Shown here in pieces: positions 1,665 through 32,800 of a stretch of 60,000 nt of DNA (position 1 is its first letter; every line of letters begins with the position of its first letter). Both the position numbers and the translations under genes were made by a program. The notes below the pieces were generated by a model. It searched no databases. It was not told the DNA's origin and worked only from the letters and a program-made list of their open reading frames with translations. The stretch comes from Callorhinchus milii (Eukaryota), in assembly GCF_018977255.1 (NCBI RefSeq), contig NW_024704742.1:37698001-37758000 (forward strand), written 5' to 3'.

Positions 1665-1739
1665 CCGTTGTTGCACCAAAAGGAAATCCAGTTGTTTGTC
1701 CACTTGCGGTAGCAGCAGTGGTTCCAAATGCACCAAACC
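1665..1739 (-). CDS. NUP54: NUP54 exon 2 (GFGAFGTTAATASGQTTGFPFGATT-G; FG-repeat region)
   Basis: ttttcttccag acceptor, phase-1 join with exon 1, resembles NUP54 GFGGFGTTSTTAG...FSF; donor G|gtactg (alternative at 1660); later exons lie left of the window. Confidence 0.8.
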
Positions 1740-3984
1740 CTGGAAGAAAACACAACACATGGGTGCATGTTATTACTGGCCACACTCAACATTTTGCTGT
1801 TGGATTTTGACAGATTTTTTTTTGTTTCAAAAGTTACTGTGTCCTTTTTTGGGGAATATTCTCCCCACTGAATATCACATATTTAATATAAATACCCCTT
1901 CCCTCCAGCCCCCTCTGACCCCAACCCGCAGCTTGGGTGCAAACCGTTCCTCATTGTTCAGCCTAGGGATGTCCTCCCGACATGAACGGTGCAATATAAA
2001 TGCAATTTGTTGTTGTTGAAGGTTTATAAAGGTTATGGCTCAAGGAGTCAATCAATGGCAAATTAGACAGTTGGATTGGAAACTGCCTTAGCAATTGGAA
2101 GTAGAAATGATGAGCAGCATTGAAAGATTTCAATAGAGGTCAAGAATTGTTGCTGATTAGACTAAAGTACCGAGCTAGGTGAAACCAGCTTACACCATGT
2201 AGCTTGCCATGGAAAACACTGTCTGGCAAGCTTTCCCGCTGCTTGTCCGGATAGGGCCACCCTAACCATTAAAGCTTTGGCCAGCGAAAGAGCTGAGTGT
2301 GAAGAGTCACTGCCCTCAGTGACTACTCTGTCTTTCCAAGACCTGCCAATGTGCCAGGTTTTCCTGTGCTGTCATCAACAGTGCCCTGGAACTGTGGACA
2401 TAGCTGGTTCAGGAACTGGCATACCGAGAAATCTGCAGAGAGTTGGCTCAGTTCTGACACTCCGTTGCCAAACATGTCATCTTGGAGCCAATTCAGCTCC
2501 AAGGAAAACCCACTCACCTCCCCACCCCCCCACGGAGGATAGTCACTAGTTGGTCAAATCCACTGTTTGGCTTGAAAATTGCTGCTTGAAGCAAAACATT
2601 CTCAGAAGGTAAGAGAGTTTATTTATTCCCCACCAAATGCCGTGTACCTGAACTTCAAAAATGTAAGCTATTCAACGTTTGAACATTCAACTGGTATTCT
2701 TTAAAGAGGTTTCTAATTTGACCTATAAACAAACAAGACCATTACGTAATCTTTCTAATCAAAACACAGGATGATAAACTGTTTGGCTTTTTCCAAAGAA
2801 TACATTTAACTTTCCAAAAACAGGGAAGTAAAAGAATAGCAGTAATCATTTGCAATGCTCTCTCTTGGCAACAGGACCTATTTGTTACTTGGGTTCAAAT
2901 TATTTGTTCTGAACTCAATCAAAACAAGACTGAACATCACTACATGTTAAAATAGGCACAATCACCTCAATATAGCAGATACCAGCAGAAATCCTCACAC
3001 AGTAACAATTTCAGACCATAGACTGACTGTAGGTGCCTTTAGCCCAGGGTTCAGGGTCTGCTGAGGGTTGGGTGCTGTTGAGAAATATCCGCGGGCTGCA
3101 TAAGCAATATTTTTGTGTTTCCCTTCCACAAACATAATCAGTAAGAAAATCATATTGAAAAACTACGTTTTAAATTGTGTAACTGGAGTACTTAATTTCA
3201 CAATGTTTTAGCTACAATGCAAACTTTAAATAAGCAATGTAAAAATTCATACAAATTTTAAAACAATATAGTTTTATTAATAAAGTAAGCATACCCAAGA
3301 ATAATCATTAAATTAGTGCATGCGCTCTGACCACGCCTGAAATAGACTAGCAAATTTTTGCTCCCTGTAGCATAGATTATGGAGTTTTCCTATAGACAAG
3401 CCTAAAATCCTGTAATCTTTGGAGAAAACCATAGACTGCAGTGTTCAGCGGGCCAGATGAAATCATCCCCCAGGCTGGATGAAGACTATCCCAATTTAGT
3501 CTATCCATCCAAAGTCCCAAAAGATTCCTCCGACAAATTTATCTTGCCACCTAATAACCATATATCGTTTAAATTTCTGGGAACTTGACTAATGCTGAAT
3601 GCTGAAAATACCATGGATAGATTTTGCACGTAACAGTGAGATCAACCCTGGACTGCAATCTTGCCAAAAAGTCAAACTAAATTATCACGTAAGAACAATA
3701 TTCACAAAAAGTGTATTGGCAACAGAGACTGGGGCCAACTGAGATATTGGAGGGCACCGAATAAGAAAGAATAAACCTACATTATTACAGCATCTTATTA
3801 CGTTGAAGTATCTTAGAGTGCGTTCCAAGCAAATCTTGTCAAGTGTATGGACTATTATTGTACTCAAATGCAGTAGTCATAGTTCCAGCATAGTTCCACA
3901 AACAGCCCTGAAGTAATGGCCAAGTAATAAATATAGAAGACAGATGGCAATCACTGGAATCACAGGAATGTTGGCGGCGGCGAC

Positions 3985-12322: not shown

Positions 12323-12379
12323 TAACAGTAAATTCTGTGAAGTGCTTTAATACGTGATAAGGCGCTGTATCAAATGCAA

Positions 12380-12700: not shown

Positions 12701-12819
12701 GCCCCATTTAAGAATGCACCAGGTCCAGCAATCATCATTTGTTGCACATACTGTTCCCAGCCTACCTAGAGAGCAATGAGATTAATTCATGTATTAAAAA
12801 ATCAGTCTGACACAGTTAG

Positions 12820-13118: not shown

Positions 13119-13164
13119 TTATAACATGGTCCCAAGTGGGGTAATACATACTTAATATGCATCA

Positions 13165-13570
13165 AGTCAGCCGGTCTCAGTTGGTAGCATTCTTGCATCT
13201 GAGTCAGAAGGTTGTGCATTTGAGCCCCAAGTCAGGACTTGGAACTCAGACACTCCAAATGAGTGCTGGAGCGGTGGGTGCTCCATTATTCGAGAAGATA
13301 TTAAATGTCCCATCTGTCTGTTCAAGTGGACGTTGAAGATCCCATGGCACTATTTGCAAAGAGAAGGAAGTTTCTCCCAGTGTCCTGGCCAAAAATCCCC
13401 CAATAAAATTGGTCACTCATTTCATGGCAATTTGTGGGGACATTGCTGTGCACAAATTGTCTGCCACGTTCGCCCACAAAACATAGTCACTGCACTTTAC
13501 AGCATGTTCTGTGAAAATCTTTGAGATGTCCTCAAGACATGAAAAGTACTATACAAAATATAAGGATTAT
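13165..13570 (+). mobile_element. Deu-domain SINE (SacSINE1-like)
   Basis: ctcagttggtagca..ctgagtcagaaggttgtg head and aagatcccatggcactattt core. Confidence 0.7.
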
Positions 13571-14364
13571 ATATTGTCACTCATATTATTTACAACTACT
13601 GTAAAATGATAAGTCCTACCCACTTCCTTATATTATTAAAATATTTTTTTTTGTCAGCCGAGTGTCTGCAGAAACCCATCATTATGCTTAAGAGTATTCA
13701 AACCAGACTAAGAGTTCCAAGCATGCCCACCTACACATGGGAGTTCCCTCTCTAAACCAGGGACAGGGATGAGGTGACTGTAGGCACTTCGGCACAGTCG
13801 GAGACAAGTCCTAGCCTCACCGGAATCCTCTCTCCCTGAGGGGACGTATGACCAAATGCTGGAGAGTATTGGGCACATTTTGGCCAGAGCTAAGATTGTC
13901 TCAGAATAGAGACAGATACCAGGAACTTCCTCCGAGCTTCCTGGTTGACAACATAGCTGAGCATGAAATGCATAATAATATCACCCATAATAATATTGGA
14001 ATCAATAAAAGAATATAAACGTGGCTATTTTCAGTTAACATAGTACAGAGATTTATGAACATTAAAGTGTTTCATTTTAAACAGCTGTGTAATTGAGGTT
14101 ATATCATTCTGTGTAATAATTCTTGCAATTGGCTCAGCACCTTTCACATTAGGAGAACATCTCAAAGCTTCAGGATATACTGTAAACTTTCTTTTGTAGG
14201 AGAATGCAACAGCCAATTTGAGCACAGCAGTGTCCCACAAACAGCCATATGTAATGTGGAAAGAGATAGAAAAATGGATTTACTGGCCAAACATGATTGA
14301 ATAACAGGAAAATGTGATTAACCACAATGAAAATTGAAAAAACAGGGAACTGGACCAAATTAAT

Positions 14365-14500
14365 CAAAACACAAAATACTGCAGATGCTGAAAATCTGAA
14401 AACAAAAACAGAAGTCGCTGGGAACACTCAGCAGGTCAGGCAGCATCTATGGAGAAACGAAAGTGAGTCAACATTTCAGGTCTATGACCCTTCTTCTTGC
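14365..14500 (+). mobile_element. Chondrichthyan short interspersed repeat (aaatactgcagatgctg...aacactcagcaggtcaggcagcatct)
   Basis: Recognised as a common shark-type repeat; family name uncertain. Confidence 0.55.
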
Positions 14501-15914
14501 AAGAAAATGCAAGAAAGTTCAAACACTGTTGCCATACCTGAACTCATACGATTATTATCCAAGAGGAAACACATCTTTTCACCAATGGATTTTTGAACAA
14601 ATTATTGCACAAGAAACAAAAATAAATTTTAACAGTAACTACATCTTACAGAATTTTGTGGCACAAGAACTCAAGGTTATAAGAATAATTATAACCAATC
14701 AGTCAGTCCAAATCTTCCCGTTCTTTTGTTTTGGTTCACAGTCAGAAAGTTAGGAAATGTCCGTCTTTTTTGAATGATTTAATTGAATCATCGTTCATGA
14801 CACTAGGTGGCAGTGGCAGTCTATTCCATAAATTAGCAATGGTGAATGGCTTAATATATATAATCTATACATATATGATCCAAAACAATACTCATAATAA
14901 TCCTCTATTTGGGATAAAGCTTTTCTCATTGGGAGGACATCTGAAAGCACTTCACAGGATATACTATAAAGTGCAGTGACTGTACTTTGTTGGTGAAATG
15001 TGGCAGCTAAGTTGTGTAAAGCAATGTCCCACAAATAGCCATGATGTGAATGATCAATTTATGTGGGGATTGATGGCCAGGACACCAGGAGAACTCCCTC
15101 CTCTTTTTGAACAGTGTCATGGGATCTTTAATCCTCTGGAACAGGCAGACGGGACCTCAGTTTATTGTAGACCCACGCTACACTGGAAATGTGATATATC
15201 TAGCTTCTGGCATTGAACAGTCAACTTCCCAGGCTAAACAAGGCTAACCAGTGGCCATTGACATGACATGTTAACAGTGACTACATCTGCAGATCTTTGT
15301 GCCACAAGAACTTAAGGGTGTAAAAATGATTATAACCATTCAGCCAGTCCAGCTCTACACATTTTTTTGGTGTCCTGTATAAATCACACAACCCATCCAG
15401 CAATACTGTATATATTATTTAGGAACAGCATTTCTGAAACGATTGTCTACAGGTTGAGATTTGGCATACAATCTCCAATAGATGTTTCCCCTGTCTGGTG
15501 TAACATATAATCTCTGTGAAGCTCTTTGATAATACTTATCCAGTTGAAAATGTACAAGTTGTTGGGCTGCACTGACGGAAAGAAATTTAGCTCTAAAATC
15601 TGTTGGGAAACAAGAATTTCTAGGACTATTTCAGACAATCATGGATTGGAATGACAAATAGAACAGGCGGTTGTATTATCAGAACACAAGAGGACACAAA
15701 GGTTCAAAGTTGCAAAGGCAATTTCAGGACAGACACCACAAAGTATTTCTTTACCGAGAAGGCAATTAATCACTGAAACAGGTCACAATGAAGGACTGGT
15801 GAGGCTAGGACTTGTCTTCGACTGTGCTGATGTGCCTATAGTCACCTCCCCCTGCCTCTGGTTTGGCATTAGGCTCCACTACTGTTAAGCGATGTGAGAT
15901 GCTACCCCGCATAA

Positions 15915-17460
15915 ACAACAACAAAGTTACATTTGTATAGCACCTTTCATGTCGGGAGGACGTCACAAGGCACTGGACAGACAGAGTTTTGGACCCAAGC
16001 TGGGAGTTGGTATTGGGGATGAAGAAGAACAGGGGGGGAAGCAGGGAGATCAAAAGCACGGTTGAAGAGGAGAGTCTTGAGATAGGTCTTGAAGGAGACA
16101 AGGGAGGGGACGAGACAGAGGGACTGCGGAATGGAGTTCCAGAGGGTGGGGGCAGAGTGACGGAAGACTGGCCTGCCAATGGTGGAGCAGGCAAGGTGGG
16201 GCACATGAAGCAGGCCGGAGCCCACTGAGCAGAGGGAGTGGGCAGGATGGTAGGGGGTTAGGAAGTCGCAGAAGTAGGGGAGAGTGAGGCCATGGAGGGC
16301 TTTGAAGATGAGGACCAGGATCTTCAACTGTATCCTCTGTGTGATGGGAAGCCAGTGGAGTCGGTAAGGATGGGGGTGGTAGGGTCACGGAGCCTGGTGT
16401 GGGAGAGGACATGGGCTGCAGAGTTCTAGATGATTTGCGGCCTAAGGAGGGAGGAGTTGGTGAGGCTGACAAGCAAGGAGTTTGCACAGTCAAGCCTTGA
16501 TGTTATGAATGTGTGTATGAAGGTCTTGGCAGCCTCCGGTGTAAGACAGTGGCGGAGCCGGGCGATGTTGCAGAGGTGGGGGAAGACAGAGCGGGTCAAG
16601 GCTGGATGTGGTATAGAAAGGATAGTTGAGAGTCAAACAAGATGCCAAGGTTCCGGGCTGCTTAGTGAGGAGCAGTGTGATAATGTCAGCGCCTGATGTT
16701 TGGAGGCGCTGATGGGAGCCAATCAGGAGGGCCTGGGTCTTGTTGACATTGTTGATGTGGAAATTGACCCCATGTCTGTGGATAATGTCACCAAGAGGGA
16801 GCATATAGACGTTGGAGAAGGGGACTAAGGACAGAACCCTGAGGAACGCTGCATGAGACGGTGCAGGGGCTAGAGGAGAAACCGTTTGTGCAAATGAAGT
16901 GGAGGCAGTTTGAGAGGTACGATCTGAACCAGTCAAGAACAGAACCACGAATGTTGAGGTGAGCGGAGAGGTGGTGGATGAGGATAGAGTGGTCAACAGT
17001 GTCAAAGGCAGCAGAAAGATCAAGAAGAATGAGGAGACAAAGGGAATCCTGGTCGCAGTTGGACAGAATATCATTTGTCACTTTGACCAGGGCTGTTTCT
17101 TTGCTGTGGGTGGCACAGAACTCCAATTGGAGGGGTTCGTGAAGGGAGTGGCGGGAGAGGAAGGAGCAAAGCTGGGAAGCAACATCTCGTTCCAAGATCG
17201 TGGATAGACAAAGGAGGTGGGGAGTGTTAGTAGACGGAAGGGCAGAGGCAGCTGAGCAGATCCACTCAACATTGGATTCAAGGAAGTCCAGCATTGCCTC
17301 ACAGTTGGCACTGTAGTTGAGGATGGGCGAGGGGCATTAGAGGATGGGCAGAGGAGTCGGTTGATGATGGAGAAGAGGAGCCGGGGTTGTCCTTAGCCTC
17401 CAAGATTGTCTTGGAGTAGAATGATGATTTAGTAGAAGCAAAAGGGGGAGCGGTAAGATT
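15915..17460 (-). mobile_element. L2-clade LINE fragment
   Basis: LLDLSAAFDTVDH, PQGSVLSPLL, KILVLIFKALHGL motifs. Confidence 0.9.
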
Positions 17461-17644
17461 TGATTACAAGAATTTCTAGAATGCAACTAGTTATGTGTTA
17501 ATTGGAGTGACAAGTAAAGACAAGTTTCGCCCACAAAATATACAGTCAATTCACTTTACAGTATAATCTGTGAAGCATTTTGAGACATCTCAATGATGTG
17601 ATAAGGTGCTATATCAAGTGCAAGAATTATTAGGATTATTAAAA

Positions 17645-18024
17645 TTGATCGGATAACTAGTCCTAGAAGATGGCATCTTGCATCGGAGAGGCCTCCCTGC
17701 CTTAACATGTGATTTGTGTGGATGCTCAGCGGAGGTTGGGTATGCATGCTCAGATGCATTGCAGAGGCCTCTGGTCGAATGGAGTGCTTCCCGCTCTGCC
17801 TCCCACCCTATCCGGTGCAGGATAGGGTAGGAAGCCTTGGCTCTCCAGTAGATCAGAGGCCTCTGCAATGCATCTGATTATGCGCACCCAATTGCCGCCG
17901 AGCACCTGCATCAGTCACAGAGCCCCCCATGGCCCCGAAGGGCATATGCCTAACTAGCCACTCCAGATAACTAGTTGTTGAGCCCGTTTCCCTTGGAATA
18001 ACAAGTTATCAGGAGTTTACTGTA
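17645..18024. mobile_element. Tigger/pogo-like foldback MITE
   Basis: Right end reads TA-CAGTAAACTCCTGATAAC on the minus strand; long internal palindrome centred near 17816. Confidence 0.6.
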
Positions 18025-18026
18025 CT

Positions 18027-18460
18027 TACATTTATATAGCGCCTTTCAAATAGGATCACGAGTTGGACTGCTTCACAGTGGGATGTTAAACGGCAATCAA
18101 GGGAAAAGGAGGAAGGGCAGGTGACCATAGGCTCAGTCAAGATGGTAGATTCTAACATGGGAGTTAAAGATGGCTACAGAGGGGGGAGGCGTAGGGCTAG
18201 AGGTAGGGAGTTACAGAGGTTAAGGTATAGTGATTGAAGACTCTGCCACTCATGAGGTAGGTGACGTGCGCCAGGCCTGTGTTCGCTGAGCAGAGGAGAG
18301 AGTATGAGAAGTTCAAAGCGGTTGGGAGGTGCTAGGGTATGAAGGGATTGATAAGAGTGAAGACTTTAAACCTATTCAGTGGAGCCCTTGAGCCCGTTGA
18401 GGATTGAATGGTAGGTGTGTAGAGCTTTGTGTGGGTGAGGATATTAGTGGAAATGTTTTA
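18027..18460 (-). mobile_element. Older L2 LINE 3' end
   Basis: Degenerate match to the same 3' tail (aggcgctatataaatgt). Confidence 0.6.
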
Positions 18461-18929
18461 GTGCCGAGTAACAAATGGTAATAAAAGAATAATTGATATG
18501 ACACAATAATAATAATACTTGCATTTGGTAAAACACCTTTCACATCAGGAGGACATCACAAAACACTTCACAGTGTTGTAAAGCGAAGTGACAGTGTATT
18601 CTGTAGTTAAACAATAAAATAAATTGTTTGAATAGAATGCTATCTGCATTCCCAGGCAGTAGTGTTAAATGGGGCTGTCCATATATACAGCAGTTGTAAC
18701 TTCTGCTACAGAATATTGATCCGACTACCACGAGGAATCTAAACAATTCTGAGAAACAAAGCGAACATTTCCTGGTACACTGTGTTCACGAAAAAAAAGA
18801 CATCAATAGATGAGACTTAGTCTTTCATTTGTTTGTTTGATGAGTTAAAATAGAAAGGTGAGTGGGTGCAAGCACACTATCTAACCTGCAAGAACTAGAT
18901 TCATAATTTTGCACCTCTACCTACCAAAA

Positions 18930-19232
18930 TGATAATAATAATCCTTGCATTTGATATAGCGCTTTTCACGTCTTCTAGAGTCTCAAGGCGCTTCACAGAA
19001 TATACTGTAAAGAGAAATGATTGTATATTTGTGGGCGAAACGCGGCAGCCAATTGCGCACAGCAGTGTCCCACAAACAGTCGTGAATTGAAATTACCAAT
19101 TTTATTATTTTTTTGAGGGATTATTATCAGGTGTGTGATGTAAGGAAAGTTGCCCAAGGTCTCGCCTTGCCGGGAATCGAACCCAAGTCTCTCGCTTGCA
19201 AGGCGAGTGCTCTAACCACTGAGCTACAGGAC
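18930..19232 (-). mobile_element. tRNA-derived SINE, full length
   Basis: Intact head and tail. Confidence 0.9.
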
Positions 19233-19964
19233 ACCACAAAAGACATTATGGACATCATAACGATGTGCACCCCTACATTTATGAAGAAAATGTAATGTAG
19301 AAAGAAGCAATGAGTTTAACCTTTAAGTATATAGTTTGGATGCAATTTAAAATATTTCAACTTATCAAGTTTATAATAATTATCCTCGCATTTTATATAG
19401 TGCCTTTCAAATCAGGAGGATGTCTCAAAGAGCTTCACAGGATTCATTGTGAATTTTTTGCAGGAGAAACTTTTATTAACCTTTTGGGAACTTTCAAGTT
19501 AGGATATAGAAAATGTTATTAATGAATTTTCCAGTTGTAACTATTGTATATAGCACCTTATCATGGTGTGGTAGCTGCTTGTGCCAGCAAGGTCCCTACA
19601 AGCAGCCATACAGACTGACCAATTAATCAGTGAGATTACAATACTAATTTTCATTTATTATAGTGCTTTTCACGTTGGGAAGTGCTTCAAAGATTGTTGT
19701 CAGTCAGGCACCACAGAGGTATACAGTAATACCTTGAAATAGGTTTAAGATTTATCACCCTGAACACCATTGGGCCAAGACACATTGGATGACTATCTTA
19801 AAAAGAATTACACAGAACCCGAAGCTGGCACACTAATGAAGTAAATATTTCAGATTGTAACCAATTGTTACTTAATTTGGGGCAAAAAAAAACCTCCACA
19901 TATATATTCAGTATAATACAATATATTCAGTGCTTTGAAATGATAAGGCGCTATACCAAATATA

Positions 19965-20150
19965 GTAATAATAATCCTTGCATTTGATATAGAGCCTTAT
20001 CACGTCTTTGAGACGTCTCAAAGCACTTCACAAAATAGACTGTAAAGTGAACTGACTACATTTTATGAGCGTGGCAGCCAATTGCGCACAGCAGTGTCCC
20101 ACAAACAGTTGTCGATTGAAGTGACCAATTTATTATTATTATTATTATTT
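19965..20150 (-). mobile_element. SINE 3' half
   Basis: Same tail and body. Confidence 0.8.
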
Positions 20151-20444
20151 TTTGAACAAATTATTATTACATTGAGACGAATTCCAATGCTGGGAGGACT
20201 GAGTTAAATTCCTCGCACTGAACTAACCCTGCAAACGTGCTACTGCTAAAGGGGAAGAGAGAAACATTATGTAGTTAGTTTGGAATCTCGGCTCCTGGAC
20301 AGCAGCTCACAGCAAGCCAGCCCTGGGCTGCAACAAGCAAAGACTCCCAAAGCAATGCCATCCTCTTTCAGGCAATGGAAGCACACACTGAACGAGGGGA
20401 AAGGGAGACCAGTGATCAGGTTATATCCCTAAGGTGCAACAGCG

Positions 20445-20660
20445 ATACATCGATTTCACAATCATTACATTTACACCAACACGGCGCTGACATTTCACTT
20501 CCAATTATAAAAGCAATGATCCTCACTCAGCATAACACTCAGCCTGTCTGATCTACCTACCGATTGCCCTTTGTACAGATAGTGCTAAACTCTGCAGTTC
20601 ACTGAGCTCCTCCCTTGAAGCCGAGCAGGCGGGGAGGCTGGTACATCTGATAAATAGTGC
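20445..20660 (+). promoter_or_regulatory. Putative LEAP2-like proximal promoter (TATA-like GATAAATA; C/EBP-, HNF4- and Onecut-like sites)
   Basis: GATAAATA 20649-20656, ATTTCACAAT 20453-20462, TGCCCTTTGTACA 20565-20577, TACATCGATTT about 20446-20456; motifs matched by eye only. Confidence 0.45.
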
Positions 20661-20714
20661 AAAACTTCAGCCCAGAATGTGTGCGAGGCAGACAACTCCT
20701 GAGGACTTGTTACC

Positions 20715-20780
20715 ATGAGATCCCACCTGAGCAGAGCGCTTGCAGTCTCCTGTATCCTCTGCCTCCTCTGCAGCATCACG
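20715..20780 (+). CDS. LEAP2: LEAP2-like exon 1 (signal peptide MRSHLSRALAVSCILCLLCSIT)
   Basis: accATG Kozak context, hydrophobic core, ACG|gtaagc donor in phase 0. Confidence 0.85.
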
Positions 20781-23700
20781 GTAAGCAGTTTCTGACAGCC
20801 ATCAGTGCCTTAGCCGTTCTCTATGCTCTTTAAAGAAAGGAAAAGTGCTTTGCCATATCTTACAGTCAATCCACTTTACAATAGATTTACAATATATTCT
20901 GTGAAGTCCTTTGAGACCTCTCAAAGATAAGGCGCTGTATCAAATGCAAGGATTATTATTAGTAGTAGTTTTGCAGAGGGATACATTGAAACGTGTTGGC
21001 TTCTTGTTGACCTGAGGTACAATTAATGTTACCATTACAGGTTATTCCTAAACTAAGTGTCTAAACTTAGGGACAACACAGTTCAGTTGTCATGTGAATT
21101 ATTATGTGAACGGTTCATGTACACACTCATATGTAAGAGGACAATTGTTGTTTAGCACGTACAGGTTTATTGATAGCCAGAGAGGGAGATTGCAGAATAC
21201 GAATGTAATTTTCAGTTTTTCAGATACAAAGAAAGAATTATAGAAGTTATAAAGGCCTTGGATTAGGGGGCAGAGTGAAACATTTAAAGAGACAGGGTTT
21301 TCAACAAACAACAACAACTTGCACTTAAATAGTGCCTTCGACGCTTAACAGTGGCGGAGCCTGACTACGAGCCAAGTGGGGTGGGGGGGGGGGGGGCAAA
21401 AAGGAAGGTTTTCAGGTGGGATTGAAAAAGGGGAGAGAGGGCAAGGTGGAGGGATTGAGGGTGAGTGTTCCAGAATTTCAGGGAATAGTGGCTGAAAGCA
21501 CGACCTCCAATGGTGGAGTGGAGGGTGGAAGGGATGAGCAGGATGCCGGTGCCAGTCGAGCGGAAGTGCCAGGTGGTGGATTGGGGAGAGGAGGTCGAAG
21601 AGGTAGAGAGGTACCAGGGAGTGAATGGAAAATTGAGAAAACTTTCTGTTTGGGGAAGGGGGAAGAGCCAGATCTTTCTTTTTGACAAGTTTAAATTATT
21701 TTCAATTATTGCAAATGATGCCACAATTTATATCACCCTCTTGCGAGTTTGCAAAGATGAAGAATTTTAAAGCAAAATGTTTCCTTGGGAACGTTTAATA
21801 GGTAGGAGTGCAACAGTGTTTTTTTTGGAGGGGGCAGTACAATAAACTGTATAGTATTATAACTGCTGTCATTTGTATTGACTACTTTCCTCAATAATTG
21901 CCAAGGCAAAAATATTTGCTGTACTATAAAATTTGGAGGGGTGTAAGAGGTAAGCGGAGTCTCTTTGGAGCTGAACTGGTAATCCAGTTCCTGAGCCAGC
22001 TGGGTCCGCAGTATTCCAGGAGCCTGTTTGCTTCATTGACAGGACTTGGAAAGGCAGACCAGTCACTGGGGGCAGAGACTCTTCCCACTCTGCTCCTGCT
22101 AACCCTGTAAGCAAAAGCTTTAATAAGTAGGAATCCCAGCTGGACAAACAGCAGGAAAGCTTGCAAGACAGTGCTCTCCATGGTAAGCTAAGCGGTTTCA
22201 GCTGGTCAGACTCCAACAGTAGCTCAACGCACACTCTTGGCTCTTCCTAACCTTTAGCCTAATACTTTCTGGAATTAGGAAAGCAGTACATTCTTTCCAG
22301 GGAGAGAATGCACATTCCATACCAATAAATATCTCTGGCATTTCGATGTATAGGTGGGATGCAAGAAGTTTGGTTTAGATACTCAAGCATGGCGATAGAT
22401 TTCTGCACACATCAGACATCCAGCTGAACAAAACAATAAATTCACTGGACCTTATAGAGTCGGACAAAGTTTAATGGAATAGACAAAGAAAACCCTGAAC
22501 AAAACAACATATATTTATATAGTATTTTCAACATAGCATAACTCAGAGCACTTTACAACGCTAGGGTTGGACACAGAGCAAGAGAGAAGGGGGAATGAGG
22601 AGTGGACCATAGAGAAGGTTGAAAAAGTAAGTTTTAAGTGAGATTTAAAGATAAATAGGAGGGAGGACAACAAGAAGTCCTTCAGATACATCAAGGTAGC
22701 AGGGCAAGAGATCATGAGATCAAGGTTTAGGAGAGACACAAGGAAGCATTTCTTTTCACAAAGTAATTAATAGCTGGAAGGAGTTAACAGAAAAGATTGT
22801 GAAGGCCAGGAGGCTGGCCTCATTTAACAGCTTGATGCCATAAGGGGCAGAGTCGGGTGGCTATTCAAGAAGGCTGAGAAAAAAATGATTGTTTTAATCC
22901 TTACATTTCTTGTGATCATGTTATTTTATATAGAACTGCTGAGTAACTTACATTAATTTATTATCCTCTTCACTTTGTGCCATGCAATAATAAATACAAA
23001 AACCCTCTGACCACTGTAATGAAATGTCCATGTTGAATATTATGTCCCATATATTAGCACAAATGCATGAGAAACATTGATTGCATGGCATTGCCTTGAA
23101 GAAAGTTGAGAACCTATTTATAATTTTAACTGTGACTGGTAATCTGGTTTAAAATGTTTAACCAGTCTTCCAGAGGTTTTGCACCTTAATTAATAGTTAG
23201 TTAAGGGGTCTATTATTCAATTTAATATAATAATAATCCTTGCATTTGATATAATGCTTTTCATGTCTTCTAGACATCTCAAAGAGCTTCACAGAATATA
23301 CTGTAAAGTGAATTGACTGTATATTTGTGGGAGAAATGACTTTGTATGGCAAAAACAATTTCCAGAAATAAACAGAAACATTATGGAAATTTTAGTTGAT
23401 TTTTCTTCTCTCTTGTTCCACGATTCCACCCGTTAACACATCCTAATTCAGCAGAAAGGTTCCAGTTTAATTAATAAGATATTTATTTAATAATTCACTG
23501 TTCTGTAAATAGTGAAAAGGGGATGGCTTAGCTGAGAGTAAGATTGACTTGTATTTCTTTTTTGCAAGGCGTTGAGTGTAAAACTTTAAAATTTTACATT
23601 CAATTCCTCACAAAAAATGAACTACGTGAAATGTAACAACCATAAAACTCTTAAGCCAAGTAAGAAAACAAGTGGGTTCTATCCACATTCCCTGGCTGCT

Positions 23701-24682
23701 GGTTTTAATTGGCTCCATTGATAAAATCTGCAACACTAACTAGATTTAATCAATAAAATATAGTCTATGTAGTCAATAAAATATAGTCTGTACCAAACAA
23801 GTCAATTTGTTCATTAGCAAACACTTTTTAGAATTTAAAATAAAAATCAGACGTTAAATTAACTAGGTGTTCATGATTTGATGTGTTACTAGAACCTGAT
23901 ATCTAGATTAGTCACATAATTTCAGATAAGCTTTTTCATGTGTAACTGGATAATCTGTCTGTTTCACTGTACAAATGCTATGATTTTTATTTTATTTTTT
24001 GTAATCGTTCCTAGGTTCAGTCAGCTACTGGACCCAATGTTCAGAGGGAACAATTAGTTCAACGAATTAGGAGATCGATGCTTTGGCGTTGGATCACTCA
24101 GAGGCCTGTTGGTGCAACCTGTAGAGACAACTCTGAATGCATCACCAATTACTGCGCCATTCAGGATACGTACGTATATAAATATCTTGATGAATTTAAT
24201 ATGAAACTTTTAAAATGGTAAACATTAATTTTGTTGACTTAACCATTGCGTTGATGAACAAAACATTACGATAGGAACGTCTTTCAAGTCCTCACCCGCA
24301 TGCCCCCAATGTTTTTGGAAGATTAAGGAGAAGAATATAATATAACTATAAAAGTGAATTTTAAAATATACAAATGGATTTCACTCAATTATTGATAACC
24401 GTCTCAGCTTTGTGAAACTCCTCAAAATGTCCTCCCAACATGAAACATAGTGCTATAAAAATCACCATTGACCAATTGTTAATATGGAAATCAATTCTAA
24501 AATATTCATCGCTTCTTTGGCCACTCACAAGCTAAATGTTCCAGTTTCAAAATTACTAGGATTCATTCATGAGACACAAAGCCATGTGAACCAGTTTGTT
24601 CTGAATCAGGAATCCGCAAAATTAACAGCATTTATTTTCTTGCAGGACAGCACAATGTTCTTTACAAACGTTTTCAGAGTAA
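20715..24682 (+). CDS. LEAP2: LEAP2-family (LEAP-2C-like) prepropeptide, 3 exons, 85 aa
   Basis: join(20715-20780,24015-24169,24646-24682) = MRSHLSRALAVSCILCLLCSITVQSATGPNVQREQLVQRIRR/SMLWRWITQRPVGATCRDNSECITNYCAIQDTTAQCSLQTFSE*. Signal peptide, RxRR furin site, RPVGAxCRDxSECIT core with 4 Cys. Confidence 0.92.
21305..21620 (-). mobile_element. L2 LINE 3' end
   Basis: TIGGRAFSHYSLKFWN...FQSHLKTFLF. Confidence 0.8.
24015..24169 (+). CDS. LEAP2: LEAP2-like exon 2 (propeptide, RIRR, most of the mature peptide)
   Basis: T-rich tract + ttcctag acceptor, AC|gtacgt donor, LEAP2 signature sequence. Confidence 0.95.
24646..24682 (+). CDS. LEAP2: LEAP2-like exon 3, coding part (TAQCSLQTFSE*)
   Basis: tttattttcttgcag acceptor; the phase-2 join supplies the 4th Cys; TAA at 24680-24682. 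Confidence 0.9.
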
Positions 24683-24885
24683 AAACGAAGATCCATAAAC
24701 CAATCTTCAAAAGTATTTTTCAAAGCAAAGGAAATGAAGTCAATTTGCAACGTGAAGTAATTCCTTTCCAAGAATGGGAAAGAAACAGCAATACAAAATG
24801 ATCAGTGAGGCTACTGTAAGCAGAATATTTAGTGCTGCAGAATATGGAATTATCCTGTTCATGATCTCAATCTGTAAATTTGTAT

Positions 24886-25090
24886 GCATTTATTTATTTG
24901 TACAATATGTTTTATATAATTAAATGCACAAAGAGCTTATTAGATTTTAAGTATGTTTTATTAGTATTTTGTAGGAATATTGAAGTTGGGACACAAACAT
25001 TTTTTGGTAACAAACTACTGCAGCAATTTCATACTGAAGTTCATTTCCCGCACTACAAACATTTAAATTTTTTTTATAAAACTCATTAAA
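24886..25090 (+). promoter_or_regulatory. LEAP2-like 3' UTR: AU-rich element and candidate polyA signal
   Basis: Overlapping ATTTA repeats at about 24888-24899; ATTAAA at 25085-25090 (AATAAA also at 25500-25505). Confidence 0.4.
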
Positions 25091-26848
25091 CAACTTTTCT
25101 TACTGTACATGAGTGCACTTCCCATTACCATTTATGAACAACACTGCATACAAGGCAAAGGAAAGTAAAAGTTCCCAATGAGGCTGGGGTCCGAAAACGT
25201 GGTCGTATTTTGGATGGTACTGCGTTCAATTCCACATCTTTGACCTTAAAACAGGATTTGAAACGATGATATATGGAGCTAAAGTACAAGTGCTGGGATT
25301 CAACAGGTTTTAAGTGCAAAGTTTAAAGCACACATATGATGGGTGTGTACTGGTATTGGTTGAGTAATGATATAATATACAATAAGATACCACCCCCAAT
25401 TTTCCCTTTTCTGCAAGTGCAAGGTGCTGATGTGCTACTACGTATGGGCAGAATTCTGCCATCGTTTTCAGTGCAATTGTTCTAAATTATGTTTTTTAAA
25501 ATAAAGGTAACATTCCTTTATAGCATGCACCTACCTCACTGCTCCTGGTCTGCCCTCTTGCTGGAGTGCTATTCCATAGACGCCTGTTGCTCTATTGCCT
25601 GCCCAATTCATGGGTGAGCCTTAGCCTTGATTGTTAGCAGGCCGCTGACTTGTATAGGGCATCACGGCTAAGCTTGACCGACCGCTCTGAACCATACCTG
25701 GCTGCGTTGCACACACACACACAAATACAGTAACAGAGGACCAGGAGCCATGGCATGTTTTTCCCCTTCCCTAACCCTGGGAAGGCCAGGAGCAATCTAG
25801 CCTTCCCATGTAAACCTGGTTGAGACAAGTAAACAGCAAAGATTGGAATTTGAACGAGCAAATTCCAAAAACTGCAACTGTATCCACTACACTATCGGGG
25901 GCTGCCCCCACAAAAGTGAATTTAGATACTAACTTGCCAATTAGTTCAATTTCTGCATCCACTTAACATACAGCGAGTGTGTAGATCCAAACTAGTACCT
26001 TACTTTTGTGGTTTGGGCAGTTTTTAAAATATTAAATTTATAACAATGCCAATTAAAAAAGCGCAGCTAAATAAGGCTGGAATCAAGTCATAAAAATTTA
26101 GTGTACGATAGAATAGGCCCGATTAGCTTCTGTGCCAATCTGAGTAATGCCCAGAGTGGGGTGGTCTATTATATTGGGGTGCTTCATCCAAATTTCAACC
26201 ACATTCCTCTTTCTCCCAAAATGTATACACAAAATTGGTTTTCCATTTGCATGTACATGCGGGAGAAAGATTGGATGGGTTGCATAACTGGTAATTAAGT
26301 AGCTCAGTTTCCTTCTGCTAAATTACATTGCTTGATAGTTCTATGTAAACCTACACATTTCCACAAATTTTAGAGCAAGGGAACATAAATATTGGGGAGG
26401 ATGTCACACTTATAAAAGTGAGAAGACATATACAACTACCCAACCTTCTGTACTGTCAGAATTGAATTTGCACCTCACTATTCAGTTGTGCATCTTTAAT
26501 TGCAATAAATTAAAAGATGTATAAGTTCACACGGAGAGCCATGCACAGGTTTGCTAATGCCCACTAGGATAACTAAACTTATTTATGGTCAATATTAGCC
26601 AAGCCTCTCTAGAAAATGTATTCTGTCCCCACAGACATTGCAAATATTACATATCCTGCAACCAGAAATTGGGAGTACTAGATCTACTCAACTTTGGGAG
26701 GTATTATTGATTCCTAGGTGATGTACACAACAATATTACCAATGTTAGTGAATAGATTGTGCCGAACAAATCTTGCAAGACATATTAAAACCAGTATTAT
26801 TTGCATAGCTGTTCTCAATCAGGGTAGTAGAGAAGCTGATAAGTAGAT

Positions 26849-26890
26849 TCAAGATGGATTCAGTAGAGGGGTCCGTTCTGTCACTGTTGG
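26849..26890 (-). CDS. SCARB2: SCARB2 exon 12, coding part (PTVTERTPLLNPS*)
   Basis: ttttgtttttaaacag acceptor; [DE]xxxL[LI] motif ERTPLL matches LIMP-2 ERAPLI; TGA at 26851-26849. Confidence 0.93.
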   Translation of the reverse strand, partial: PTVTERTPLLNPS

Positions 26891-29800
26891 CTGTTTAAAA
26901 ACAAAATTACAATTGGTTACTATATACACTATATTTACATACACCTATTACCCTCCCCAGAAAAAAAATGGTCCTTTAAGCAGTTGATATGACTCAATAT
27001 CTAACAGACCAAGAATGATTTGTAGACACCCGAAATAGGCGAATGACAATATGGATAACAAAGTTAAACCAAACATTCATTCATACTTTTTAAAGTCCAA
27101 TAGACAACCAAGTCTTACAACTGGAATTTCTTGTTCCAATGTTCTTTTGTCTATACTAAGGCAGTGTAAATTGTGGTCAACTTGATTTGGGTTAAATTAT
27201 ATTGAACTAAAAATGGTATTGGACAAAGTGACACAAGATATATGGATCTTTAAGACAAACAAAAAGAATTTTTAAAAATCCTCCACATATAGGATTTTTA
27301 TAATTTTATAGTGTTTAAATCCTCAACATGGTCATTTGTGGTACATCACTGTGTGCAAATTAGTTGCTATGCTTGCCCACAAATACAGTCACTCTACTTC
27401 ATAATAAATGCTGCAAAGTGCTTTGGGATGTCCTCCTGATGTGAAAACAGCTAGAACAGATGCAAGGATTATTATTCAAAAATGAACATTGGGCAAGAAG
27501 ATGGTGAATTAACATTTAAAGCCTTTCAGGCATGAAAGATAAATGTGTTAATATGTTTAAAAAGAGAACATATCGTAAAGCAAGATAAAGGTAGACAAGT
27601 TAAAACAATGTCAAGTAACATCTCACAATCGAACTATGATATTGTACGAATTCAGTACATATTTGCTGAACTCTTGAGAGATCAATGTTCAGCCTAAGTT
27701 AGACAGATTTCCAAACTGACAATGCAAAAAGTTATTTTGTTTGGCTGCACTATTAAAGCAGTATAGACTTTGGTTAAAAGAGATCATTGCGTCGCAATCA
27801 ATGTTTGCATAGTGCTGTCCACAAACCTAATAGTCTGACTTTGGACTAAAATCAAGGTGAAGCGGTGCAGTATGGGAAGCAAAAAAATGTCCAGTTGCAA
27901 ATCCACCATCACATGCAAGTCGTTTTAGCTATTAGGTCACACCATTACCCACTAAACTAAGATTCTATTTTTAATTCCCATTTCCTCCCCAACAAAACAA
28001 TATCGTGGGGGGGGGGGGGGGGGCAAGAAAGAGAAGGAAGAACAAGGAAAGAGATTCTGTATTACTTAAGCTTGGACTTAAGCTCCGATGAGGAAACGTT
28101 GACAATTTTAGGCTGAAGTCCTTTTCATCAGACCAGTAGATTTGTGAAAGAGATGATACAAGGCAACATCTCCAAATGAATAATGATATAAAAAATCCAA
28201 ATGATCAGTTTCCTTTCTACACAAAATGTCAAACATTCTGGAAAAACAAGCAAATTCCTCAAGCTTTTGTTGATCGCTGAGGAATTGTACGATTTGCATT
28301 AAGGTCAGTACTTGCTGCACTACAATCTTTGCTGAACTCAAATAAGCTACTTAAATAGGATTGAATAGGAAGCAGACGACTCATATTGATGAACATTTTG
28401 TCAACATTCTGGGTGCTGAAACCATGTCAAAGATCATGATTTTCTGGTCATTTTCCTACAAGAGCATTGAACCCATAGAGACAGATTTGCAGGAGTGAAA
28501 GGTAGGTTGCTACTGTTGATGGGTTTTTTGTGATCACTCAAGAGGATTTTTTTAAAAAAAAATTCTGGTCAGAGGAGAGCAACTTCTAGTTATTTATCTT
28601 TAAATACTTTGAACCTACCAACACAGAAAGAGCACGTTACAAAAAAAAAATCCTAATGATCAGTATGGTTTGAAACTGTTTTTGAAACTCAAAAATGTCA
28701 CTTCCTCAAACCAAATAGCATGTTGTTGTTGGTGGGGGGATGGGAAAAAATGGGTGAGGGGTAAAGAAAAATTAGTAAGTAAAAGTGGACTAGTCCAGGA
28801 GTCACAGTGGAATTGTATTTCCATGCTATTGCTCTGGAAATACAATATATTTGTAGTATATTGCATGTTGGGTGGATGTACCAAAGCCCAACAACAAGAA
28901 ATTGTTTCAGATAATGAACATCCAACAATGCTGGAGGTGGAGCAGGCGAAAGGAAGATGATTGAAAGTATGGTACCCAGGTGCTAACTATTCTAATCCCT
29001 GTTCTTGCTCGATTTTCTAATTTTTCTCTTCAAAACAGAATCAGTGAAAAAATGACTGCAAACTGCGTTTGAAATGCAATCTTTACATCTACACTCTAAT
29101 GCTCTCTCAACTGAGCTATCATAGGTTATTAATGTTCCAACTTTAGCCATTCTTAGTTAACTGTGGGGTGCTTTTGCTCCAAGGTTAAGAGAGGAAGGAG
29201 GAAGTGGAAGGCCATTTTAGAGCAGCTAGGCTAGATAGTAATAAAATATATATGTATATAGATTTATCTTCACACTCTCAATCTTCTGATTCTGCTCATT
29301 CCAGAAATTGAAAGTTATTCATTACTTGTCACAGTCGCCGTCAACCATTGGGATTTGCAGATATTAAGATCATGTTTCTAGGTAATAAAATAACTAATAA
29401 CTATATTCAGTCACAGTTTTATAATCATTTTGTCAATTGACTGTCCCAAACATTTTTTAGAAGTTAGGAAATCGTAAGCCTGAAATAAACACATTCATAA
29501 GATTTAGTTTTATTAGGTTTACATTTTTAAAGAAGGGGATTGTTCTCTGGATACCAGTTGGTTTATGAAAAAAAAGTTTATTTCATTTTCGTACAACAAA
29601 ATGGCAGAATGGTTAATGGCATGTCTCAGAACTATATAAAATGTATTTTATTTATTCAGACGGCATTGTTTTATTTTCGCCTCCCTCCCAATGAATTCCT
29701 CCATGGCATCTTTCCTTGAGTCAATTTTCATGTAGTCATATTTCATGCTTAAGAAGGGCAAATCCATTTACACAATCAGAGACAAACCCAACCAGGGCCT

Positions 29801-32800
29801 CACCCACCTTTGATGTTATATGGACTTGCAACTAGACAGCAGTCAGGAATCCTGACTGATTGCAGCTCATCTGAGACAAAGCTATCTGTAGAGTCCTACA
29901 CTGTCATTTCAGTTAACCACAAAGGTCAGTGAATAAAGCTTGGACCTTTATGGTCGGCTCAACTTTACACCACTTGATATTTATGTTTTCACTTGATGAA
30001 ATGTTTTCCTCTCATTTACTATTTAATCTTAATTTTACAAAAAGCCAAGAACATATCAAATTCAAGTATTATTATTATCATCATTATGATTAACATTAAA
30101 ATTATATTGCATGTGGACCAGTCAACAACTGATACCACTAAGAAGACCCATACTTCAAATACTGTGCTGAAAATGATCAGATGACAAAAAGTCAGCGACT
30201 TACAATCATTTCTATGTTAGTCGAAAATAAGGAAAACTGCATGGCACAGAGGGTTTCCTCCTTCAAGAAAATATCTAGTTCCAGCATTAAAATGTTTTTT
30301 CTTTATTAGCTGGGAGTTTAAACAGAGTTCCATGTATTGCACATATACGTGGAAATTCCTGAGAAATTTGTAGGATTGGAATGCCCACTCTCTCTCTTGA
30401 GGGATGCATCCTGTTTACCTAATGGGCATTACTTGCAGGATTAACAGGAGCTGAGTGGGAAGATTCCTTGCCCCCAGTGACTGGTCTGCTTTCCCAAGTC
30501 CTGCCAGTGAGCTAGATTGGCTGAGCTATCATAAGCTGCACCCTGGAGTACTGTGGGCCTGCCTGGACTATTGAGACCACCATAGAGAATTGGCTCGATT
30601 CTGACATTTCATACACAAACAGCCAGTTCAGCTCCAAGAAGAACCCACTTACCTATCCCTAAGGAGCTTAGTCACTAATTAGTCATTTGACATCTGACAA
30701 GTTCAGGTTTGAGCCCTCAATACAAACTCCCTGTAATCTTCCTGGTGAATAATACAGCTCAGCATGAAATTGCCATTGCCACCACCTTTCTGTTCACAGC
30801 TCAGATATGCATCCCTTCTCAATGAGTGTAATGGTTCCACCAGTTGGCTGAGCTTGAGCAGCAGCAAACCAATTAAGGTTGATTCCAAGCACTGGATGTA
30901 TGAACACATGTAAACAAACTGGGACTAAGGCAATGCCTTCCAGCAGCTGTGCCCCAAGTCTCAGTTTCCTCATGGCTATCTGACAGATCTGATGGGAGGA
31001 CTTGTAAAGTACAAGCCACCTCGATGTTTGAGGTTCAAGTCATATGCCGTGTACCAGGCTTCCTCAGCTTTAGCTGCTTAATCCAGGTTCTCGCGTAAGG
31101 GGCCTTGGCAAAGAGTGTGAAGCCAACTCCGCCTGTAGGGTGCTTATCGACAGGTCAGTGTAGGCCGGAGCTTTCTCTCCCTGCAGCCACTTACGTGTTT
31201 GCCACAAATCTACCTGCTTGATCCAGGACTTGGGTCAGAGGAAGCCTCTCTGCTGCATCCCCAGGAGCTCAGATTCATAAATGACTGTTTGCACACAGGT
31301 CATATACCACAAGGTTGACCTGCATCGGGACTTTCTATGCATCAAGAGACAAACGCAATTAGAGTTTGTCCTTTCTCTGTGCGATCATTCAGGCTGATTT
31401 GTGTCCACCATAATGAACGATAAGAATTGACAATAGAGCCTGATGCCCCCTTTATCTTCCAATCAATATCCTCAATGCTTTCTCTTGAGCCACCATCATG
31501 TCCCACCATCATGTCCCACTAGTGTTCAAGATGGTGAGTGCAGCACAAAATTTACCCAGGTGAGTCTGTCGACAGAGGCACCATAATTCTGTCAGAAATG
31601 CTTGGACAGATACACTAAGCCCACCTACCCAATGCCACCCAACACCTATTATTGAATATATTGAATAGGATGGGTGACAATGGGCAGCCTTGCTTTACCT
31701 CTTTCAAGTGGGATGGGCTCAGGTCAATCCTTACATGGATCTTGGAACTGGAATACCCATTCTGGATAAAATCCTAGATTTGGCCATGCTCTTCCAGTTT
31801 CATTATAAGCACTAGGTTGAAATGATGAATGCAAGGCAAGTAAGCCTTGCAACGTACTGGGATCTCACACTAAGCCCCTACCGGTCCCACACATTCCTCA
31901 ACAACAAGATTACATTTGTATAGTACCTTTTACATCCGGAGGACATCCCAAGGTGCTGGGCAGTGTACAGCATTTCAGACCCAAGCTGGGGTCAGGGAGG
32001 GGAAGGGGAGGTGACCGATGGCATGGTCGAAGAGGAGGGTTTTGAGGTGGGACTTGAAGGAGGCTAAGGAGGTGCTGAGGCTGAGTGATTGGGGAATGGA
32101 ATTCCAGAGGTTGGGGGCAGAGTGGTTGAAAGCTCTCCCGCCAATGGTCGGTCGAGGGACATGGAGCAGGCCGGAGCCGGCTGAACGGAGGGAACGGGCG
32201 GGGTGGTAGGAGGTTAGGAGGTCGCAGAGGTAGGGTGGAGCGAGACCATGGAAGGATTTGTAGGTGAGAACCAAGATCTTGAAATGGATCCCCTGAAGGA
32301 TAGGGAGCCAATGGAGTCGGGTGAGAATGGGGGAGATGAGGTCGCAGAGTTTGGTGTGGGAGAGGAAACGGACTGCAGAGTTCTGCAGCCTGTGGAGGGA
32401 GGAGTTGGGAAGGCCGACAAGCAGGGCATTTGCATAGTCAAGAGAATAGAAGCCAGCCTTCCTAATCAAATCAAGAGCCTCCAAATCATACGATAAATGT
32501 GCAGTGTCCACCCAAAACACCACTTGAAGAGCCACTGAAATCAGCGAGATCTCTCCGTAGTTCCATTTCATTAAGGTCCCCCTTCTTGCGGCTAGAAAAC
32601 GCAATTGCACTCAGGAACACTGACATAGTGCTTTCCTCAGAGTCCTGTTGACCAGCAATAGGAGGCGAGTTGGCATGGTTCACAATGTGAGTTGGAGATT
32701 CCTGGCTTGGATCAGTGAGATCCTCACTGTTCCCCCTCTCCACTCCAGCTTTTAAGAACTTAGCGTTAATGCTGTCTGCATCTGCTTCCACATCAGTAGC

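Follow-up and report, generated by a model that had tools for sequence, protein, structure and literature searches.

A gene of the LEAP2 family lies on the plus strand at positions 20715-24682 of a 60,000-nucleotide (nt) stretch of the genome of the elephant shark, the cartilaginous fish Callorhinchus milii (chromosome-scale contig C1:37698001-37758000 of the 991.5-Mb assembly). This whole stretch is referred to as the window, and positions are given in its coordinates unless a contig is named. The gene occupies the interval between NUP54 and SCARB2, and is one of exactly two LEAP2 loci recovered from this genome. It very probably represents, in chondrichthyans, the lineage that goes by the name LEAP-2C in ray-finned fishes, and is an ohnolog of classical LEAP2, that is, a copy generated by a whole-genome duplication in an early vertebrate, with a putative TATA-driven promoter and a predicted secreted 43-residue peptide as its product.

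The coding part of exon 1 (20715..20780, 66 nt) consists of 22 codons that specify a hydrophobic signal-peptide region; its ATG has an A at position -3, and it ends in a phase-0 donor, gtaagc. An intron of 3234 nt (20781..24014, GT..AG), which contains interspersed repeats, separates it from exon 2 (24015..24169, 155 nt). Exon 2 is preceded by a pyrimidine-rich acceptor ending in cctag and followed by the donor gtacgt, and encodes the propeptide, an RIRR site (24063-24074) and the beginning of the mature peptide, with the N-terminus SMLWRW (from 24075) and the first three cysteines. A phase-2 intron of 476 nt (24170..24645, gtacgt..ttgcag) leads to the coding part of exon 3 (24646..24682, 37 nt; acceptor ending in ttgcag), which supplies the last 11 whole codons, including that of Cys4, and the stop codon TAA (24680-24682). 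Joined by a script, the three exons yield 258 nt, an open frame of 85 codons closed by the stop codon and interrupted by no other, with GT-AG borders at both introns. In the resulting prepropeptide of 85 amino acids (aa), RIRR occupies residues 39-42 and is followed by a C-terminal peptide of 43 residues with four cysteines. The exons, the canonical splice sites, the 85-codon frame, the cleavage site and the four-cysteine peptide can all be read and joined directly, as the initial annotation of this DNA had proposed.

On the upstream side a TATA-like box, ATAAATAG, can be read at 20650-20657 (+) and would be the likely core promoter element; no promoter CpG island was found in the 60-kb window. 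The 5' untranslated region (UTR) extends at least over 20681..20714 (+), which is covered by record 19 of the sequencing run X4, and the real transcription start may lie further upstream. Downstream, the 3' UTR up to the first polyadenylation signal spans 24683..24940 (+; ATTAAA at 24919-24924), with its true end uncertain, and further signals past the stop codon occur at 25085 (ATTAAA) and 25500 (AATAAA).

The gene belongs to the LEAP-2 family. Exon 2 alone matches the Pfam LEAP-2 model (PF07359) with 42.6 bits (E 5.4e-11; curated cut-off 27) and the solved structure of human LEAP2 (2L1Q) with an E-value of 1e-7, the fold-defining residues being kept. The RIRR site aligns with an R-x-[KR]-R sequence directly before the mature peptide in 17 of 17 aligned family members. 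LEAP-2 genes are described as having three exons and two introns in the available text of PMC9986249, and the gene on C1 has this structure; it also shares the 66-nt, phase-0 exon 1 and the phase-2 intron 2 with its paralog on contig C13. The exon structure and the family match taken together are far beyond chance expectation. When the reading frame enclosing exon 2 was used as a protein query, three proteins were retrieved from three candidates, the best being XP_007895115.1. The complete product of the gene is identical, letter for letter, to this entry, which is also UniProt V9LG19, 'liver-expressed antimicrobial peptide 2 [Callorhinchus milii]', 85 aa. Hence, the gene is an ordinary and already annotated one, and its earlier description as hidden does not hold.

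Four public runs (X1, X3, X4 and X5) were compared with positions 19500-27500; all or part of the stretch is contained in 13 of the 14 listed runs. In X4 a single contig of 1930 nt aligns in three pieces, 20681-20779, 24014-24169 and 24646-26320, with 0, 0 and 2 differing letters respectively, and its joints coincide with both predicted junctions (20780/24015 and 24169/24646) within the ambiguity of a single G. Since the genome contains no intron-less copy or retrocopy of the gene, a contig that skips both GT-AG introns must derive from spliced RNA. The spliced transcript that the initial annotation called for was therefore found, and the splicing and reading frame of the gene are established. 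The 5' end of this contig (20681) lies 24 nt downstream of the TATA-like box. At its other end it continues to 26320, overlapping the 3' exon of SCARB2, and it cannot show that all of this belongs to one transcript; because contigs merge with the SCARB2 3' exon in this way, the 3' end of the LEAP-2C-type transcript is not fixed.

Two LEAP2 loci and the age of their separation

Both a protein search and a scan with the Pfam LEAP-2 model (two matches, with 45.1 bits at the C1 locus) recovered the same two loci from the 991.5-Mb genome. The second gene, P0158 (XP_007889647.2), lies at C13:15233510-15235425 and has a mature N-terminus of the MTPFWR type. The C1 gene is thus not the only LEAP2 of the genome, an outcome that would have spoken against its being a second copy. 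On C13, UQCRQ precedes LEAP2 by 4.3 kb and an AFF gene follows it at 22 kb, while a Shroom gene and a septin lie at distances of 48 kb and 91 kb. The LEAP2-like gene on C1 (37.7187-37.7229 Mb) has an AFF, a Shroom and a septin gene at distances of 246 kb, 385 kb and 460 kb. At both loci the AFF gene is found on one side and the Shroom-septin pair on the other, whereas the immediate neighbours are UQCRQ on C13 and NUP54 and SCARB2 on C1.

The genome-wide distribution of these neighbours extends the picture. AF-4/AFF (C13 15.257-15.270 Mb; C1 37.436-37.473 Mb) and the Shroom ASD2 domain (C13 15.182-15.185 Mb; C1 38.108-38.113 Mb) both occur on the same four contigs, C1, C4, C13 and C15. Septins are present on these contigs too (C13 15.136-15.142 Mb; C1 38.183-38.190 Mb), and at other loci elsewhere. 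UcrQ/UQCRQ has its only genomic locus at C13 15.2275-15.2292 Mb, with none on C1. The C13 order septin-Shroom-UQCRQ-LEAP2-AFF matches what we take to be the layout of human 5q31.1 (SEPTIN8, SHROOM1, UQCRQ, LEAP2, AFF4), while C1 carries counterparts of genes that presumably lie together at human 4q21 (AFF1, NUP54, SCARB2, SHROOM3, SEPTIN11). The proposal that the two LEAP2 genes reside in paralogous blocks is accordingly borne out in C. milii itself, where AFF, Shroom and septin paralogs flank both.

To place the C1 gene within the family as a whole, we distinguish two types by the mature N-terminus, SxxWRW, to which it belongs, and MTPxWR, that of classical LEAP2. A search of 1.84 billion representatives gave 43 matches; with a profile built on 17 family members the number was 257, the best 120 being listed. 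A second profile, based on 11 SxxWRW-type proteins, had 75 matches, 42 of the SxxWRW type and 33 of the MTPxWR type. The former include nine chondrichthyans, sterlet, paddlefish, gar and bichir, the coelacanth Latimeria, Microcaecilia and Ambystoma, and teleosts; the latter come from birds, tuatara and one frog. Both types are found together in C. milii, Rhincodon, Heptranchias, Heterodontus, Scyliorhinus, Cetorhinus, Pristis and Latimeria, and between them they also span ray-finned fishes, amphibians and amniotes. Contig data are on record for both genes in five of the six sharks and rays, namely whale shark, Heptranchias, Heterodontus, Scyliorhinus and Pristis, and in each of these the genes are placed on separate contigs. 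The duplication that separated them predates the split of cartilaginous and bony vertebrates. Since Latimeria, Microcaecilia and Ambystoma carry SxxWRW-type genes, the lineage persisted on the tetrapod side.

The sterlet protein, of the SMMWRW type, falls into one 90%-identity cluster with 'LEAP-2 isoform C [Acipenser dabryanus]' (AWM12222.1), which ties the SxxWRW type to the LEAP-2C of the fish literature. In a maximum-likelihood tree of 51 rows (81 columns kept) the 26 SxxWRW rows form a single split with support of 96/95, and they did so with 99/94 in an earlier tree of 47 rows; these trees kept 81-82 columns and were built without the teleost MTPLWR-type (LEAP-2A/B) proteins. Within the SxxWRW split there is a chondrichthyan group (100/93) and a group of coelacanth plus amphibians (100/94), and the chondrichthyan MTPxWR rows also group together (99/96). 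A constraint joining all MTPxWR rows was not rejected (p-AU 0.346). The cluster and the split together uphold the initial comparison of the N-terminus with that of teleost LEAP-2C.

Two individual sequences deserve mention. The whale shark has two MTPxWR-type LEAP2 proteins (P0076 and P0078), both recorded on a contig of equal length (73,789,946 bp), which suggests a tandem duplicate of classical LEAP2. The Cetorhinus maximus protein P0188 ('uncharacterized protein LOC144686198') is of the SxxWRW type, lacks Cys4 and ends in unrelated residues, and its exon 3 has probably been mis-predicted.

In the account that we consider very probable, LEAP-2C and classical LEAP2 would have arisen together by a whole-genome duplication in an early vertebrate, and the two copies would still reside in the resulting paralogous blocks. 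The principal alternative is that, in an early jawed vertebrate, a LEAP2 copy reached the NUP54-SCARB2 interval by a small-scale duplication or transposition, the position within a paralogous block being coincidental. The differing immediate neighbours of the two copies, UQCRQ as against NUP54 and SCARB2, would fit this alternative, as would the lack of any LEAP2 relic on the paralogous contigs C4 and C15 in the protein and Pfam genome searches, and so would the lamprey-rooted trees, in which the SxxWRW clade adjoins, with weak support, that of the chondrichthyan MTPxWR type. Against it stands the situation of both copies, each with an AFF gene on one side and a Shroom-septin pair on the other: on C1 the stretch from AFF to Shroom measures about 0.68 Mb of 991.5 Mb, which by our own arithmetic gives a random landing chance of about 0.07%, so that a chance arrival of the copy there is unlikely. 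Furthermore, because both types are present on each side of the chondrichthyan-osteichthyan split, the copy must be at least as old as crown jawed vertebrates, which takes it back to the period of the genome duplications. We therefore regard a small-scale event as improbable. That the C1 locus is a decaying or non-functional copy, in line with the presence of the spliced contig in only one of four runs, is scarcely credible given its intact frame, canonical sites at both introns, spliced contig and UniProt entry (V9LG19), and given 11 N-terminal residues that are unchanged in five of the eight complete chondrichthyan sequences and in bichir as well.

Several points nevertheless weigh against the account by whole-genome duplication, or against parts of the evidence assembled for the gene. 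The synteny data come from one genome only, that of C. milii. The trees that use lamprey as an outgroup make the MTPxWR type paraphyletic, with the SxxWRW rows beside the chondrichthyan MTPxWR rows, at weak support (87/63 with 47 rows; 85/51 with 51 rows); the alignment columns are few (81-82) and the lamprey branch is long. As for expression, the spliced contig occurs in one of the four runs only, X5 has no cover of exons 2-3, and X1 and X3 cover these exons in unspliced form only. The RNA nature of the runs is itself a guess, as none of the 14 listed runs is recorded as RNA, and 'liver-expressed' is a label taken from the database.

Retaining whole-genome duplication as the favoured account, the claims of the initial annotation about origin are largely supported, with some amendments. 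It had taken the gene to be a second ohnolog kept in cartilaginous fish: the paralogous blocks and the two loci support its being an ohnolog, but the view of a shark-specific relic fails, as gar, bichir, sturgeon, paddlefish, teleosts, coelacanth, caecilian and axolotl possess the lineage too. A whole-genome duplication is likewise supported as the source, though the second round (2R), which had been named, is not separable here from the first (1R). The claimed loss in mammals agrees with the result that no amniote SxxWRW-type protein was present among the 75 matches of the SxxWRW-type profile search, an absence bounded by what that search listed; however, since the lineage also occurs in bony fishes, coelacanth, caecilian and axolotl, the loss came later than had been implied.

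The names LEAP-2A, -2B and -2C are in established use for teleosts and sturgeons, as in the available portions of PMC9986249, PMC11149183 and PMC11767564, and the first of these, in the same portions, ascribes the multiple LEAP-2 genes of fishes to fish genome duplications. In contrast to that view, the present results would date LEAP-2C to the early vertebrate genome duplications and give it a chromosomal home of its own beside SCARB2, with survival in sharks, ray-finned fishes, coelacanth and some amphibians. What is gained thereby is a two-ohnolog nomenclature, a dated loss toward amniotes, and a conserved orphan peptide whose receptor can be sought. In the library searched we found nothing that joins LEAP2 with SCARB2 or LEAP-2C with synteny, though the age of LEAP-2C may already be treated by Zhang et al. 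2018, on sturgeon LEAP genes, and by Li et al. 2021 (Amino Acids), and nothing relevant on LEAP2 as an 'ohnolog' or on LEAP2 with Callorhinchus milii. The gene itself being known, what is added is modest, namely its placement as an ohnolog between NUP54 and SCARB2, which we did not find in print. In passing, the source cited in section 2.3 of PMC11767564 (Zhang et al. 2018) concerns chondrostean sturgeons, an apparent slip in the review as far as its available text goes.

Flanking genes and repeats of the window

The gene order NUP54 (-), LEAP2-like (+), SCARB2 (-), in keeping with the location between these two genes that the initial annotation had proposed, was established by domain and exon matches. 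A Pfam scan of the 448 stop-free open reading frames (ORFs) of at least 48 aa in the window detected the CD36 family in six (all on the minus strand, 42399-50716), LEAP-2 in one and decayed reverse transcriptase in eight. The six CD36-profile ORFs, at 50534-50716, 49584-49868, 47523-47822, 46138-46362, 45292-45585 and 42399-42713, scored 38.7-76.9 bits, were recovered again in the genome scan, and represent the CD36-domain exons of SCARB2 (LIMP-2); the identity of the gene follows from the best PDB match of an exon, which is to LIMP-2 at 72.8 bits as against 37.8 for CD36. C-terminal SCARB2 exons, beyond position 383 of the CD36 profile, were recognized by Pfam neither in the window nor in the genome scan. 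Among the other CD36-family loci of the genome, a paralog at C4:18862678-18871537 (-) lies 2.3 Mb from the C4 Shroom gene (21.19 Mb), so the CD36 family may also be part of the four-fold paralogous blocks; further loci comprise one at C5:61.24 Mb and a tandem pair at C8:8.37-8.39 Mb.

The terminal exon of SCARB2 can be placed at 24941..26892 (-), with an acceptor, ..aaacag, at 26892, a stop codon at 26851-26853 and a 3' UTR of about 1.9 kb. It encodes a 13-codon tail with an ExxxLL-type motif, and its polyadenylation signal reads TTTATT on the plus strand (24957-24962). X3 record 14 (24941-26892), X4 record 22 and X5 record 30 all end at 26892, and X5 record 30 has 1451 further letters that lie elsewhere. 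We infer the assignment of 24941-26892 to SCARB2 from its strand, its position next to that gene and the ExxxLL-type tail. The LEAP-2C-type gene and SCARB2 would thus be arranged tail to tail, with their 3' ends a few bases apart. One contig of 3706 nt in X1 (record 6; 23408-26892) is spliced at the SCARB2 acceptor at 26892, with 221 further letters elsewhere, and continues without a break across the SCARB2 3' exon and then across exon 3, intron 2, exon 2 and 600 nt of intron 1 of the LEAP-2C gene. It represents either a SCARB2 isoform whose long 3' UTR is antisense to that gene, or a product of the assembly in which unspliced LEAP-2C RNA was merged.

On the other side, an FG-repeat exon at 1665..1741 (-), an FG-rich open frame with ag/gt flanks, is most probably one of the 5' exons of NUP54. 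The exons of the Nup54 domain are at C1:37687454-37688644 (-), their sole genomic site, about 9.4-10.5 kb to the left of the window, and more FG exons occur on the minus strand at C1:37693105-37693365 and 37695569-37695670. The Nup54 domain was not detected by Pfam within the window, either in the 448 ORFs of at least 48 aa or in 128 minus-strand ORFs of 28-47 aa in positions 1-20700. The FG exon at 1665-1741 itself matches nothing in Pfam or PDB, and a motif search of 1742-20600 for the first exon of NUP54 yielded nothing convincing.

Repeats occupy a good part of the remaining DNA. Decayed RVT_1 fragments, resembling long interspersed elements (LINE-like), are found at 359-891(-), 4545-4787(-), 6826-7636(+), 16791-17336(-), 31618-31773(-) and 43519-43866(+); they take up much of the spacer between NUP54 and LEAP-2C, and some lie in SCARB2 introns. 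At 8719-10182 there is a GT-rich minisatellite of about 1.4 kb, with about 82 copies of an 18-bp unit, GGTGTCTCTGGGTGTGGG (80% matches), which is open in six frames. A (CA)n microsatellite of at least 3.5 kb, with about 1800 copies, 66% matches and no CpG, extends from 56499 to the window end at 60000. The segments 19767-20300, 20835-21101 and 23238-23504 have a summed contig word depth of 10^4 to 3.6x10^5 in all four runs, and many contig joints connect 19961-20093 with 23227-23306. They are copies of a very abundant interspersed repeat, perhaps resembling a short interspersed element (SINE-like), situated just upstream of the promoter and in intron 1.

The mature peptide and its possible action

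LEAP2 is an endogenous blocker of the ghrelin receptor (GHSR) and a current target of obesity research. For the gene on C1, the features of the encoded protein allow the following scheme. A TATA-driven, three-exon gene would give rise to an 85-residue prepropeptide from which the signal peptide is removed; a convertase of the furin type would then cut after RIRR and so release a secreted peptide of 43 residues, which, modelled on the solved structure of human LEAP2, would be held by two disulfides, Cys1-Cys3 and Cys2-Cys4.

The first 11 residues of the mature peptide, SMLWRWITQRP, are identical in five of the eight complete chondrichthyan sequences, and the remaining three differ there by one or two changes; they are identical again in bichir and nearly so in gar, sterlet and paddlefish. 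This conservation argues for a conserved binding partner. The M-T-P-[FL]-W-R motif of ghrelin-receptor binding is absent, S-M-L-W-R-W lacking the initial Met and having the Pro replaced while keeping L-W-R. The four cysteines are present and aligned, with a spacing of 5-4-8, not 5-4-4. The 5-4-8 spacing recurs in eight of the nine chondrichthyan SxxWRW-type sequences, the ninth being the Cetorhinus model that lacks Cys4, and every other complete sequence has 5-4-4. An uncharged or acidic loop of eight residues stands in place of the basic patch between Cys3 and Cys4, and the four extra residues of the chondrichthyan peptides map to the border of exon 2 and intron 2; a displaced exon 2 donor could plausibly account for them.

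The net charge of the mature peptide is -1. Across the eight complete chondrichthyan sequences it ranges from -2 to +1, and for five chondrichthyan peptides scored separately from -2 to 0, as against +3 to +5 in the MTPxWR-type. The cationic mature peptide from which the name 'antimicrobial' derives is therefore not found here. From these features we lean, by a narrow preference, towards a circulating signalling peptide rather than a membrane-lytic antimicrobial.

Action as a second GHSR antagonist seems unlikely. In its favour, the peptide retains LWR, the core of the N-terminal binding motif, as well as the fold-defining residues conserved with 2L1Q. In human LEAP2, Phe4, Trp5 and Arg6 are important, with Leu in place of Phe in active fish LEAP2s, according to the available text of 10.1101/2022.09.21.508860. 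In the alignment, however, the N-terminus of the C1 peptide is one residue shorter and Pro3 is replaced, and this genome has also retained a LEAP2 of the MTPFWR type as a separate gene. Moreover, the same text reports two LEAP2 genes in the croaker, one of whose products, LEAP2B, has no Met at its N-terminus, as is true of the C1 peptide, and showed almost no binding to any of the five ghrelin receptors tested, whereas MTPLWR-type fish LEAP2s had nanomolar IC50 values. The weight of this comparison is lessened in that the croaker LEAP2B is presumed to be of the SxxWRW type from that text, by its missing Met and the presence of two genes.

Less likely still is the role given by the database name, that of a classical liver antimicrobial peptide. 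Its membership in the LEAP-2 family by Pfam is in keeping with such a role, but the charge of -1, within a chondrichthyan range well below that of the MTPxWR-type, and the loss of the basic Cys3-Cys4 patch to the uncharged or acidic loop count against it; a peptide predicted to be non-cationic is a poor candidate for membrane lysis.

Going beyond the preference for a signalling peptide, we offer as a tentative and rather speculative scenario that LEAP-2C might be a second peptide hormone of jawed vertebrates, separate since ancient times, and not a fish-specific extra antimicrobial. Its almost unchanging N-terminus SMLWRWITQRP might address a receptor other than GHSR, or GHSR in a different manner. 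The form of cartilaginous fishes could then have dispensed with every cationic, antimicrobial trait and gained a four-residue loop by the shift of the exon 2 donor, and the gene might have been lost on the amniote stem, leaving the mammalian NUP54-SCARB2 interval empty.

Comparison with known LEAP2 types

Classical LEAP2, as represented by the human peptide (2L1Q) and the C13 gene (P0158), has in common with the C1 gene the Pfam LEAP-2 domain and an RxxR prepropeptide, the C1 sequence matching 2L1Q with an E-value of 1e-7, and the C13 gene agrees with it in the 66-nt exon 1 and in the intron phases. The two differ in the mature N-terminus, MTPFWR in the classical type as against SMLWRW, and in a net charge of +4 or +5 as against -1. 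The C13 gene, whose protein is 46% identical to the C1 protein, further lies on another chromosome and in another block (UQCRQ/AFF as against NUP54/SCARB2).

The sarcopterygian SxxWRW 'LEAP2-like' proteins of Latimeria (P0193), Microcaecilia (XP_030048346.1) and Ambystoma (XP_069482416.1) share the N-terminal motif of the C1 protein and fall within the same clade, but have a cysteine spacing of 5-4-4 and a net charge of 0 to +3.

LEAP-2C of ray-finned fishes has, like the C1 gene, the S-[ML]-[LM]-W-R-W N-terminus, one residue shorter than that of LEAP2, the four-cysteine frame and the three exons; it belongs to the same clade of the tree (96/95), and the C1 protein is 50-54% identical to the proteins of sterlet, paddlefish, gar and bichir. 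The differences reside in the segment between Cys3 and Cys4 and in the charge: the ray-finned peptides have four residues there and a net charge of +1 to +5, whereas the chondrichthyan ones have eight and are neutral to acidic.

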